From Escherichia coli (GTDB lineage Bacteria; Pseudomonadota; Gammaproteobacteria; Enterobacterales; Enterobacteriaceae), in assembly GCF_024223415.1 (NCBI RefSeq), contig NZ_CP100500.1: a DNA stretch of 64,000 nt, one strand, 5' to 3'. Both the position numbers and the translations under genes were made by a program. A model generated the notes under the pieces. The model made no database searches. It was given only the letters and a program-made list of their open reading frames with translations, and had not been told where the DNA came from. Position 1 is the stretch's first letter; each line of letters begins with the position of its first letter. Positions 16,756 to 36,386 of this stretch are shown in pieces.

Positions 16756-16774
16756 AGTATAGGTCGGACCAGCT
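16756..16774. promoter_or_regulatory. Candidate FadR operator upstream of fadL
   Basis: Minus-strand reading AGCTGGTCCGACCTATACT matches the FadR consensus (ANCTGGTCNGACNTGTT-like). Confidence 0.6.
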
Positions 16775-17019
16775 GGAATGTTGCAAGTATGTTTCTATCT
16801 TTTTTCAAATATGATCTAAGAAACGCGATCCAGCTGGCAAAATTTGGAGGTGGCGCACTCATGGATTCGGGTGAATTTTGTTTTAGATCATTTTTAAGTG
16901 TGATTTCGGTCACTTATCCGATTTTGCAGAATTAACAACTGGAGCAGCACTTTCCGGAAGCGTAAAATATCCACAACGTTTATCTGGCACCTTGGGTGCA
17001 CATACAGAGGAAATCAACG

Positions 17020-17304
17020 ATGAGTAAATGTAGTGCTGATGAAACCCCGGTTTGCTGCTGTATGGATGTTGGCACCATTATGGACAACTCCGACTGCACC
17101 GCGTCTTACAGCCGCGTGTTTGCAAACCGCGCAGAAGCAGAACAAACGCTGGCGGCGCTGACTGAGAAAGCCCGTAGCGTGGAATCTGAACCGTGCAAAA
17201 TCTCCCCGACTTTCACTGAAGAGTCTGATGGTGTGCGCCTGGATATCGATTTCACTTTTGCCTGCGAAGCTGAAATGCTGATCTTCCAGCTGGGTCTGCG
17301 TTAA
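17020..17304 (+). CDS. yfcZ: Small conserved protein YfcZ (UPF0381/DUF406)
   Basis: 94-aa product starting MSKCSADETPVCCCMDVGTIMDN...; start placed inside the longer ORF-track frame. Confidence 0.8.
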   Translation: MSKCSADETPVCCCMDVGTIMDNSDCTASYSRVFANRAEAEQTLAALTEKARSVESEPCKISPTFTEESDGVRLDIDFTFACEAEMLIFQLGLR

Positions 17305-17321
17305 TTCCTCTCGGGTACGTA

Positions 17322-17358
17322 CGCCCCTGTCAGTTGCTGGCAGGGGCGTTTTCTTTTC
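17322..17358 (+). terminator. Rho-independent terminator after yfcZ
   Basis: CGCCCCTG...CAGGGGCG stem followed by TTTTCTTTTC. Confidence 0.65.
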
Positions 17359-17441
17359 TCTTCTTCTTTTCTCTCTGTGTCATAGCTCCCACTTTCCCTT
17401 TTCTCCGCTTGGCTAAATGTAAAAAAATGGTTAAGACTATG

Positions 17442-17457
17442 ATCAGGTCAGACCACT
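17442..17457. promoter_or_regulatory. Candidate FadR operator upstream of fadIJ
   Basis: ATCAGGTCAGACCACT (reverse complement AGTGGTCTGACCTGAT) matches FadR consensus about 30 bp upstream of the fadI start. Confidence 0.55.
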
Positions 17458-17484
17458 TTATTTATTTTTTTACAGGGGAGTGTT

Positions 17485-18795
17485 ATGGGTCAGGTTTTAC
17501 CGCTGGTTACCCGCCAGGGCGATCGTATCGCCATTGTTAGCGGTTTACGTACGCCTTTTGCCCGCCAGGCGACGGCTTTTCATGGCATTCCCGCGGTTGA
17601 TTTAGGGAAGATGGTGGTAGGCGAATTGCTGGCACGCAGCGAGATCCCCGCCGAAGTGATTGAACAACTGGTCTTTGGTCAGGTCGTACAAATGCCTGAA
17701 GCTCCCAACATTGCGCGTGAAATTGTTCTCGGTACTGGAATGAATGTGCATACCGATGCTTACAGCGTCAGCCGCGCTTGCGCTACCAGTTTCCAGGCGG
17801 TTGCAAACGTCGCAGAAAGCCTGATGGCGGGGACTATCCGAGCGGGGATTGCCGGTGGGGCAGATTCCTCTTCGGTATTGCCAATTGGCGTCAGTAAAAA
17901 ACTGGCGCGCGTGCTGGTTGATGTCAACAAAGCCCGCACAATGAGCCAGCGTCTGAAACTCTTCTCTCGCCTGCGTTTGCGCGACTTAATGCCCGTACCA
18001 CCTGCGGTAGCAGAATATTCTACCGGCTTGCGGATGGGCGACACTGCAGAGCAAATGGCGAAAACCTACGGCATCACCCGAGAACAGCAAGATGCATTAG
18101 CGCACCGTTCGCATCAGCGTGCCGCTCAGGCATGGTCAGACGGAAAACTCAAAGAAGAGGTGATGACTGCCCTTATCCCTCCTTATAAACAACTGCTCGC
18201 GGAAGACAACAATATTCGCGGTAATTCCTCGCTTGCTGATTACGCAAAGCTGCGTCCGGCGTTTGATCGTAAACACGGAACGGTAACGGCGGCGAACAGT
18301 ACGCCGCTGACCGATGGCGCAGCGGCGGTGATCCTGATGACTGAATCCCGGGCGAAAGAATTAGGGCTGGTACCGCTGGGATATCTGCGCAGCTACGCAT
18401 TTACCGCTATCGATGTCTGGCAGGACATGTTGCTCGGTCCAGCCTGGTCAACACCGCTGGCGCTGGAGCGTGCCGGTTTGACAATGGCAGATCTGACATT
18501 GATTGATATGCACGAAGCCTTTGCCGCCCAGACGTTGGCCAATATTCAGCTACTGGGGAGCGAACGTTTTGCTCGCAACGTACTGGGGCGTGCGCATGCC
18601 ACCGGTGAAGTGGACGATAGCAAATTTAACGTGCTTGGTGGCTCGATTGCATACGGGCATCCCTTTGCGGCGACCGGCGCGCGAATGATAACCCAGACAT
18701 TGCATGAACTTCGCCGCCGCGGCGGTGGATTTGGTTTAGTGACCGCATGTGCTGCCGGTGGGCTTGGCGCGGCAATGGTTCTGGAGGCGGAATAA
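17485..18795 (+). CDS. fadI: 3-ketoacyl-CoA thiolase, anaerobic beta-oxidation (FadI)
   Basis: 436-aa thiolase [31 protein letters not shown]... with C-terminal active-site region; stop overlaps fadJ start (TAATG). Confidence 0.93.
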
Positions 18796-33837: not shown

Positions 33838-33870
33838 AGCCAGCGCCACGTTTTACAATGAGGAAAGAAG

Positions 33871-34149
33871 ATGATCGCGGAGTTTGAATCACGCATTCTG
33901 GCATTAATCGACGGTATGGTTGACCATGCCAGTGATGATGAGTTGTTTGCCAGTGGGTATTTGCGTGGCCACCTGACATTAGCCATCGCAGAACTGGAAA
34001 GTGGTGATGACCACTCCGCTCAGGCGGTGCATACGACCGTTAGCCAGAGTCTGGAAAAAGCCATTGGTGCTGGTGAATTGTCGCCGCGTGACCAGGCGCT
34101 GGTGACCGATATGTGGGAAAACCTGTTTCAGCAGGCATCACAGCAGTAA
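33871..34149 (+). CDS. yfcL: Small conserved protein YfcL
   Basis: 92-aa [38 protein letters not shown]... Confidence 0.85.
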
Positions 34150-34171
34150 GTTGCGGCGTCTGGAGCACCAT

Positions 34172-34252
34172 GCCTGATGCGACGCTTATCGCGTCTTATC
34201 AGGCCTACACGTCACACGTAGGTCGGATAAGGCGTTCACGCCGCATCCGACA
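34172..34252. repeat. BIME (two convergent REP palindromes) between yfcL and mnmC
   Basis: GCCTGATGCGACGCTTATCGCGTCTTATCAGGCCTAC ... GTAGGTCGGATAAGGCGTTCACGCCGCATCCGACA. Confidence 0.8.
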
Positions 34253-34269
34253 AACAATGCCAAAGCTGG

Positions 34270-36276
34270 TTACCCAGCCTTAACTGCTTTACCCTTCAAC
34301 AATTTCCGCACCCATAACCGATTCGGATTTAACGCCGCCAGCGTACTGGCATCCATCGGAATCGGTTCGTCGCTCATCTGCGCCGCCAGAATCTCGGCAC
34401 ACAGCGGGGCAGAACACAAACCACGCGAACCCAAAGCAGCAAGCATAAAGAGATCGTCATAAACCGGCGCGCTTACCGCCTTATCTTTCTGCTCCGCCAG
34501 CGACGCATATTCCACGAGTGTTGCCTCATAATCGGGAACATTACCTACCATTGGCAGATGATCGCGGGTGGCACAACGCACACCGCAGCGCGCCTCTTTC
34601 TCACTGACATCAACCTCTTTTGCCCACTGTGCCTGCGGGAAACAATCAATCAACCGCTGGCGATTCTGCTGCTGATCTTCATCACTGTACGCCGTATCTT
34701 CGCTGCCGCGATGATAACTAGCACCAATACAATGATGCTGATTCGCCGGATTTTGTGGCGTGAGATAACCGTCATAGCACAGCACCTGCTTCAGTTTTGC
34801 CAGTTCCGGCGTTGTCGGAATGTGGCTGACCTGACCAGCAACTGAATACACCGGTAGAGTCGACGTTTGGCTGAAACGGCTGATTTGATGCCCGTTCGCC
34901 AGTACCACCACACTATGAGTCGCTTGCTGATCTCCTGCAAAATTCAACAACCAACAGTCATCCTTACGGGATAAATCCTGTAACTGATATTGATAATAAA
35001 TCTGCAAACCCTGCTGTTGCGCCAGTTCCAGCACATTACGGGTCAGTTCTGCTGGACATAGCCAACCACCTTGCGGATAAGTAATGCCGCTGCAATTTGT
35101 CGCAACGCCCGTAATTTGTTCAACCGCATTTGCCTCAACGGCTACAGCCAGTTCTGCGGGTAAATCCATTGACAACATCTGTGCGATTTTATGCTGGCTT
35201 TTCTCATCCCAGCCTAACTGCGTGACGCCGCACCAGTCATGATCAAATTTAACGGGTAATTGGTCGTAAAACCGACGAGCAAAAGTAAACGCATTAGAGA
35301 AAAAGCGATTCAACGCCTCATCGTGTTTACTTAAGAGCGGATACAACGCCCCCTGGCGATTGCCGGAAGCACCCAGCGCGGGGGCTTCATCCGCGCAATA
35401 AAGCGTTACTTGCCAGCCGCGCCGTAATAACGCCAGCGACAACAACGCGCTGGCAATACCACCGCCGATAATCGCTACTTCCCGTTTGCTGCTGCCCGTA
35501 CGATTAAACCACGGCGTGGAGCAGGGGAGTGATAATGTCTGTTCCATCACCCCACAAAGCATTTCCCGTTTGCGCCCAAAGCCCTTACGTTTTTGCATCG
35601 TGAATCCGGCGTCCTGCAAACCGCGGCGGACAAAACCGGCAGACGTAAATGTCGCCAGCGTGCCGCCCGGACGCGCCAACCTTGCCATGGCGTTAAACAG
35701 ATTTTGCGTCCACATATCCGGGTTTTTCGCTGGCGCAAAGCCGTCCAGAAACCAGGCATCTACTTTTTGATTTAGCGAATCGTCCAGTTGGCTGGTCAGT
35801 TCATTAATATCGCCAAACCATAAATCCAGCGTCACGCGGCCTTCATCGAGTAATAAACGATGGCAACCGGGCAAGGGCATTGGCCACTGCGCCTGAAGTT
35901 GTTCTGCCCACGGAGCCAGTTCCGGCCAGTGTTGATGCGCTAAGGCTAAATCCGCACGGGTGAGGGGAAATTTCTCAAAACTAATGAAATGTAAGCGTTG
36001 TAATTGCGCTTGCGGATGCGCTTCGCGAAACTGATCAAATGCCTGCCATAGCGTCAGGAAGTTTAATCCGGTGCCGAAGCCGCTCTCTGCTACCACAAAC
36101 AGAGGATGTGGATGCTCAGGAAAGCGTGCCTCTAATTGGTTACCTCCGAGAAAAACATAACGCGTCTCTTCCAGCCCGTTATCGTTGGAAAAATAGACAT
36201 CGTCAAAATCTCGGGAAACAGGTGTACCCTCAGCATTAAATTCGAGGTTGGCAGGTTGTATGGAGTAGTGTTTCAC
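34270..36276 (-). CDS. mnmC: Bifunctional tRNA 5-methylaminomethyl-2-thiouridine biosynthesis enzyme MnmC
   Basis: Product (V->M)[28 protein letters not shown]... (668 aa); GTG start at 36276 chosen inside the longer ORF-track frame. Confidence 0.88.
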
Positions 36277-36353
36277 GTAAGTTACTCGTCTTACAGGCGG
36301 TGGCTCGATCTTAGCGATGTGTGTAAGGCTGCGCAAATTTCTCTATTAATTGG

Positions 36354-36386
36354 CTGATCGGACTTGTTCGGCGTACAAGTGTACGC
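36354..36386. promoter_or_regulatory. fabB control region: candidate FadR activator site (CTGATCGGACTTGTTC) adjacent to FabR-type palindrome (GCGTACAAGTGTACGC)
   Basis: FadR-consensus-like sequence followed immediately by a 16-bp perfect palindrome, about 50-80 bp upstream of fabB. Confidence 0.6.

Follow-up and report, generated by a model that had tools for sequence, protein, structure and literature searches.

The FadR-like sequences upstream of fadL, fadI and fabB in a 64,000-nucleotide stretch of an Escherichia coli chromosome (contig NZ_CP100500.1 of RefSeq assembly GCF_024223415.1; the whole stretch is to be referred to as the window) are, with high confidence, native regulatory sites through which FadR controls its E. 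coli regulon. This GntR-family protein recognizes a 17-bp near-palindrome as a dimer and is released from the DNA upon binding long-chain acyl-coenzyme A (acyl-CoA). This assignment draws on published FadR probes, on the ranks of the sites among intergenic positions, on conservation, and on positions relative to published transcription starts, which fit repression at fadL (sites over the -10 hexamer and start) and activation at fabB (site near -40). FadR control of fadL, fadIJ and fabB is stated in reviews, with the consensus aaCTGGTCnGACC(T/A)Gtt (PMC9329746). The fadR gene is located outside the window; since 5,422 of 5,426 complete E. coli genomes have it, the source strain almost certainly carries it too.

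The sequence at 16756-16774 is AGTATAGGTCGGACCAGCT (reverse complement AGCTGGTCCGACCTATACT), with the canonical 17-mer at 16758-16774. Upstream of fadI, positions 17442-17457 read ATCAGGTCAGACCACT (17-mer at 17442-17458), and upstream of fabB, positions 36354-36369 read CTGATCGGACTTGTTC (17-mer at 36352-36368). An earlier note on this DNA had pointed out these three segments as FadR operators, and their bases are as it described. The published gel-shift probe fadL-FadR1 maps with 35 of 35 bases to 16750-16784 on the minus strand, and the published fabB gel-shift probe with 56 of 57 bases to 36342-36398 (PMC4259882). The probe fadL-FadR2 also maps in full (35/35), to 16723-16757 on the minus strand, and covers a second known fadL site at 16734-16750 (Table 1); the note had site 1 correctly and omitted this one. 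Published FadR probes and literature sites thus coincide with the flagged sequences, in agreement with the note's view that they belong to the known regulon. Its gene calls hold as well: FadL, FadI, FadJ and FabB each score above their NCBIfam equivalog cut-offs and are so annotated in a near-identical genome.

Table 1. Regulatory sites and genes of the fadL-fadIJ and fabB regions of the window. Scores, ranks and expected numbers of matches per window refer to the FadR matrix; promoter positions are relative to the transcription start unless stated otherwise.
Feature	Position	Strand	Score (bits)	Rank	Expected per window	Remarks
fadL	15308..16648	-				long-chain fatty acid outer-membrane transporter; NCBIfam equivalog NF007988, 830.7 bits (cut-off 585); annotated fadL at 100% identity
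fadL FadR site 2	16734..16750	-	5.5	18 overall, 4 intergenic	37	CACTGGTCTGATTTCTA on fadL strand; at -1..+16
fadL FadR site 1	16758..16774	-	10.0	4 overall, 3 intergenic	4.6	AGCTGGTCCGACCTATA on fadL strand; at -25..-9
CRP-cAMP site, probe fadL-CRP-site1	16885..16929	-				functional at fadL promoter; exact map; core ~16897-16916; block conserved
yfcZ (DUF406)	17020..17304	+				between fadL and fadI; annotation and family match
Intrinsic terminator 3' of yfcZ	17321-17349					terminator-like hairpin, 13 pairs then T-run
fadIJ FadR site	17442..17458	+	19.4	1	0.007	ATCAGGTCAGACCACTT; 27-43 nt upstream of fadI ATG
fadI-fadJ operon	17485..20939	+				second beta-oxidation complex; NCBIfam equivalogs FadI 898.8 bits (cut-off 711.55), FadJ 1344.3 bits (cut-off 968.45)
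Match inside yfcO	28071-28087		13.3	3	0.71	
CpxR box	36323..36337	+				GTAAGgctgcGCAAA; -112 to -98 from ATG, sequence and position per PMC7083825; third regulator site in spacer
fabB FadR site	36352..36368	+	14.5	2	0.33	GGCTGATCGGACTTGTT; at -46..-30 from published start; overlaps inferred -35 hexamer TTGTTC
FabR site	36371..36386	+				GCGTACA-AG-TGTACGC; at -27..-12; fills spacer between inferred -35 and -10 (TATTGT, 36387-36392)
fabB	36435..37655	+				beta-ketoacyl-acyl carrier protein synthase I; NCBIfam equivalog NF005935, 804.8 bits (cut-off 630)

The window was scanned at 63,984 positions, 7,410 of them intergenic, with a symmetric FadR position weight matrix (PWM) built from eight sites that all lie outside the window, which avoids circularity. 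Four of these sites are the best seed-matrix matches in the K-12 promoters of fadE, fadM, fadH and iclR. They presumably agree with the sites in RegulonDB. The other four are taken from published probes, one for fadBA, two for fadD and one for fabA (PMC4259882). The consensus of the matrix, AACTGGTCCGACCAGTT, agrees with that of the review cited above. The four known sites occupy ranks 1-4 among the intergenic positions. They are all found within the 709 nt upstream of fadL, fadI and fabB, an arrangement with a chance probability of roughly (709/7410)^4 = 8e-5. When each gene's own upstream region alone is considered, the chance value is ~2e-5 for fadI, ~8e-4 for fabB and ~0.03 for fadL. In addition, the core CTGGTCNGACCWG has 16 matches with up to 2 mismatches in the window, compared to 5.4 expected, and none of 100 shuffles reaches this number; fadL site 1 and the fadI site each carry one mismatch to this core, the fabB site two and fadL site 2 three. 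The note had proposed that such a scan would return its three sites as the top hits above background. They rank 1, 2 and 4 in the whole window, where a match in yfcO comes third, and 1-3 when only intergenic positions are counted; by score, the fadI site stands above the background of the window, and the fabB and fadL sites do not.

At fadL, the functional site for CRP-cAMP (the complex with cyclic AMP) is centered 157 bp upstream of the transcription start (PMC3460868). From this distance and the mapped CRP probe, the start is located at about 16749, with the -10 hexamer (TATACT) at 16761-16756. The two FadR sites, 24 bp apart, span both this hexamer and the start, so that FadR bound there would block RNA polymerase. 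The 3' end of site 1 overlaps the inferred -10 hexamer, and as a result site 1 departs from the consensus at this end and has a low score. FadR binds both sites with similar affinity in electrophoretic mobility shift assays and is released by oleoyl-CoA, and the two sites give only 2- to 2.5-fold repression (PMC3460868). The promoter has the same probes, spacing, -10 and start position and upstream CRP site as that of E. coli K-12 (PMC3460868, PMC4259882). There is no difference inside the sites, whereas the surrounding fadL-fadJ segment is only ~93% identical to K-12.

Conservation around fadL and fadI was examined by a FadI scan of species-representative genomes, which gave 80 loci ranging from Escherichia to Serratia and Rahnella. 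In most of 79 species, both fadL sites retain their positions of -126 and -102 relative to the ATG and thereby the 24-bp register. Site 1 varies only at its central base (A, C or G) and in its outer flank, and a free central base between fixed half-sites is expected for the site of a dimer. The fraction of columns with at least 90% conservation is 14/17 in site 1 and 14/17 in site 2. Within E. coli, 5,352 genomes match a query of 41-49 nt across the fadL sites with 99% identity or more in the aligned part.

The fadI site is located directly after conserved promoter-like hexamers (TTGGCT...AAGACT). Judged from these hexamers, it is likely positioned over the transcription start, in agreement with the literature: fadIJ shows FadR-dependent induction by long-chain fatty acids, and its FadR site overlaps the start (PMC9329746). 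This single strong site, past the yfcZ terminator, would repress fadIJ in the same manner as at fadL. It corresponds to the one strong site reported just upstream of fadI in E. coli fadIJ (yfcYX) (Campbell et al. 2003, as cited in PMC9329746), an identity that is based on the PWM score and conservation and not on published boundaries. In all 79 loci having upstream sequence, the site is ATCAGGTCAGACCACTT or one or two bases off, usually 41-58 nt before the ATG, and the species that keep it include those in which the identity of the YfcZ protein drops to ~40%. Of its 17 columns, 16 are conserved at 90% or more, compared to 29% of the columns in the rest of the yfcZ-fadI spacer. Within E. coli, a 41-49-nt query across the site has an identity of 99% or more in its aligned part to 4,653 genomes.

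A PdhR box proposed from genomic SELEX (systematic evolution of ligands by exponential enrichment), CAGCGGTAAAACCTGAC on the minus strand, is found at 17489-17505, just downstream of the fadI site, and corresponds to fadI codons 2-7. PdhR is from the same regulator family as FadR and is reported to be an activator of fad genes (PMC7660256). The yfcZ gene, of unknown function, is positioned between fadL and fadIJ in 77 of the 80 sampled species. The PWM finds no FadR-like site near its likely promoter (conserved GCGTAAAATAT, ~16960), and a FadR site serving yfcZ was rejected on this basis.

At fabB, transcription starts 37 bp before the ATG (PMC7083825), which corresponds to ~36398 in the window. 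FadR, centered at about -38 and overlapping the -35 hexamer, would activate transcription from this position. In its repressor sense, the term operator in the earlier note does not apply to the fabB site, which is in an activator position. The note had also taken the sites as support for the gene starts: they are in agreement with the annotated start codons of fadI, fabB and fadL (27, 67 and 110 nt upstream, respectively), and do not fix them. The promoter hexamers were read manually, with those of fadL and fabB anchored on the published start sites; a sigma-70 promoter scan gave no consensus promoter for either fadI or fabB, and its one match in the fadL spacer is unrelated.

Immediately beyond the FadR site, positions 36371-36386 read GCGTACAAGTGTACGC, the perfect FabR-like palindrome noted earlier. 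Its two 7-nt inverted arms are indeed perfect, and its 2-nt center, AG, is not itself palindromic. It is the sole exact match to its pattern in the window. FabR, a repressor of the TetR family, responds to unsaturated acyl thioesters as their sensor. Bound to this palindrome in the spacer between the -35 and -10 hexamers, it would repress fabB. The arms start 2 nt past the FadR 17-mer, and GCGTACAAGTGTACGCTAT contains ACA-AG-TGT-ACGC-T. The palindrome fits the FabR core ACAnnTGTnnnnT (PMC4804515), and chromatin immunoprecipitation of FabR in Salmonella and work on the E. coli probes are reported in the literature (PMC4804515, PMC4537474). The CpxR box is located upstream of both sites, and its GCAAATTT part is conserved across species. 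At 36362-36380, the 3' half of the FadR site and the left FabR arm are bridged by an imperfect inverted repeat, ACTTGTTCG/CGTACAAGT. This repeat was rejected as a separate element, is weaker in species with ACAACT, and is probably incidental.

The fabB promoter has the FadR, FabR and CpxR boxes of the published E. coli promoter, with the same distance from start to ATG (PMC4259882, PMC4537474, PMC7083825, PMC4804515). The single substitution relative to the published probe (T for A at 36350) is two bases outside the FadR 17-mer. The E. coli fabA promoter has the same FadR plus FabR arrangement, with CTGATCGGACTTGTTC and then GCGTACA in common; however, its FabR site is an imperfect palindrome (GCGTACACGTGTTAGC), in comparison with the perfect 7-nt arms at fabB.

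A FabB protein search returned only near-identical E. coli proteins, of no use for orthologous promoters, and a degenerate pattern for the FabB N-terminus was scanned over metagenome contigs instead. Among the distinct upstream regions with a FabB identity of 80% or more, all 51 retain CTGATCGGACTTGTT as well as the FabR palindrome. The FadR core is kept in none of the 19 regions with FabB below 80% identity, which fits the report that Vibrio and Shewanella fabB are without a FadR site (PMC4537474). The only long conserved stretch in the mnmC-fabB spacer is 36354-36390. Within E. coli, 5,425 of the 5,426 genomes have an identity of 99% or more in the aligned part of a fabB 41-mer, and identity over the whole spacer goes down to ~91%.

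Several observations weigh against the assignment to FadR. Binding and expression in this strain are deduced from its sequence and from the published probes. By score alone, only the fadI site exceeds what chance produces in 64 kb: the best score in order-3 Markov simulations of the window is 13.5 +/- 1.9 bits, the window holds 4 matches of at least 10 bits where 4.1 are expected, and the fabB site and both fadL sites are within background. The overlap of the site blocks with core promoter elements may explain part of the conservation of these blocks, and the transcription start of fadI is placed from the sequence. With PWM expectations of 4.6, 37 and 0.33 matches per window at the scores of fadL site 1, fadL site 2 and fabB, and an equally good match inside yfcO, where no function is expected, the motifs could be chance resemblances to a degenerate consensus, with no regulatory role. 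We regard this as a negligible prospect, as the four sites are the top four intergenic matches and all lie upstream of fatty-acid genes, their positions are conserved in dozens of species while the flanks diverge, and they are identical to probes bound by FadR in vitro. The FadR matrix alone cannot tell weaker true sites (those of fadL and, in part, that of fabB) from the background of 64 kb; restriction to intergenic positions and conservation across species separate the true sites cleanly.

It is also very unlikely that the blocks are kept mainly as core promoter elements (the fadL -10, the fabB -35 and the fadI start) or as sites of another regulator of the FadR/GntR family, such as PdhR, with FadR being secondary. 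The overlaps with TATACT at fadL site 1 and with TTGTTC at fabB are in line with this alternative, as is the broad conservation of the fadL-yfcZ spacer, where 42% of the columns outside the sites are also at 90% or above. So are the genomic SELEX data for PdhR, which peak at the yfcZ-fadI spacer and are weaker at fadL (PMC7660256). Conservation of a hexamer, however, would not account for the pattern in each 17-mer, where both half-sites are conserved and the central base is free, the signature of a dimer site. The proposed PdhR box is elsewhere, in the first codons of fadI (17489-17505), and FadR binding with release by acyl-CoA was demonstrated on identical probes (PMC3460868).

The third-ranking match of the scan, TGCTGGTACGACCTGTT, is inside the yfcO adhesin gene, where it encodes LLVRPV. 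The 201-nt segment around it is found in only 8 of the 5,426 E. coli genomes, and YfcO is here 45% identical to the K-12 protein. This 17-mer is most likely a chance match, since about 0.7 such matches are expected per window and the allele is rare. There is little likelihood either that it is a working FadR site tying this fimbrial variant to fatty-acid availability or that yfcZ is an unrecognized member of the fatty-acid regulon. The yfc fimbrial operon as a whole (22065-28714) is a divergent allele, with DNA ~80% identical to K-12, and its usher gene (22919-25558) is annotated as intact, while the K-12 counterpart is the pseudogene yfcU.

FadR, when overproduced, is also reported to affect the acc genes via low-affinity sites (PMC12977641). 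In the spacer upstream of accD (43969-44123), no FadR-like site is detectable by the PWM (best score 0.16 bits). Weak false matches arise from REP-like (repetitive extragenic palindromic) sequences in the dedD-cvpA spacer, at 34188 and at 37671. The dedD-cvpA spacer contains three tandem naRNA4 (REP325-type) elements at 47091-47343.

The window corresponds to the reverse complement of the K-12 chromosome at ~2.41-2.48 Mb. A 1.3-kb stretch around the first two sites is matched in 5,425 of the 5,426 complete E. coli genomes, several of them, SCU-316 included, at 100%. For 16400-17700, identity is at least 99% in 1,760 genomes and 95-99% in 3,665. The genes are 99-100% identical to those of SCU-316, with fadL, fadI, fadJ and fabB at 99.95-100%. 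Identity to K-12 is 93.1% for the yfdF-fadL-yfcZ-fadIJ segment (14575-21651), compared to 97.6% for 28883-40050. With the SCU-316 annotation mapped onto the window, the gene order is evgSA, emrKY, dsdA, the csc sucrose genes, tRNA-Arg, yfdC, mlaA, yfdF, fadL (minus strand), yfcZ, fadI and fadJ (all plus), sixA, the yfc fimbrial operon, smrB, prmB, aroC, mepA, yfcA, epmC, yfcL, mnmC (minus), fabB (plus), yfcJ, flk, pdxB, usg, truA, dedA, accD, folC, dedD, cvpA, purF, ubiX, argT and hisJQMP, onward to pta and ackA.

The csc sucrose-utilization cluster (5592-11424; LacI-type regulator, cscA, kinase and transporter) is located between a truncated dsdX and tRNA-Arg. It is missing from the K-12 stretch that was fetched for comparison, whose similarity to the window begins at 11733. 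At 13663-14943 there is an unbroken open reading frame of 426 amino acids, where the closest annotated genome has yfdF as two frameshifted pseudogene pieces; the region differs from that genome by ~0.8%, indels included.

The net effect of the FadR and FabR sites in the presence of exogenous fatty acid would be that the genes for uptake and beta-oxidation are turned on and the synthesis of unsaturated fatty acids goes down. These sites and their regulation are already known and are textbook E. coli. The value of the analysis is that of a sanity check, showing that the window was correctly identified as the fadL-fadIJ...fabB region of E. coli and that the expected regulation of this region is intact.

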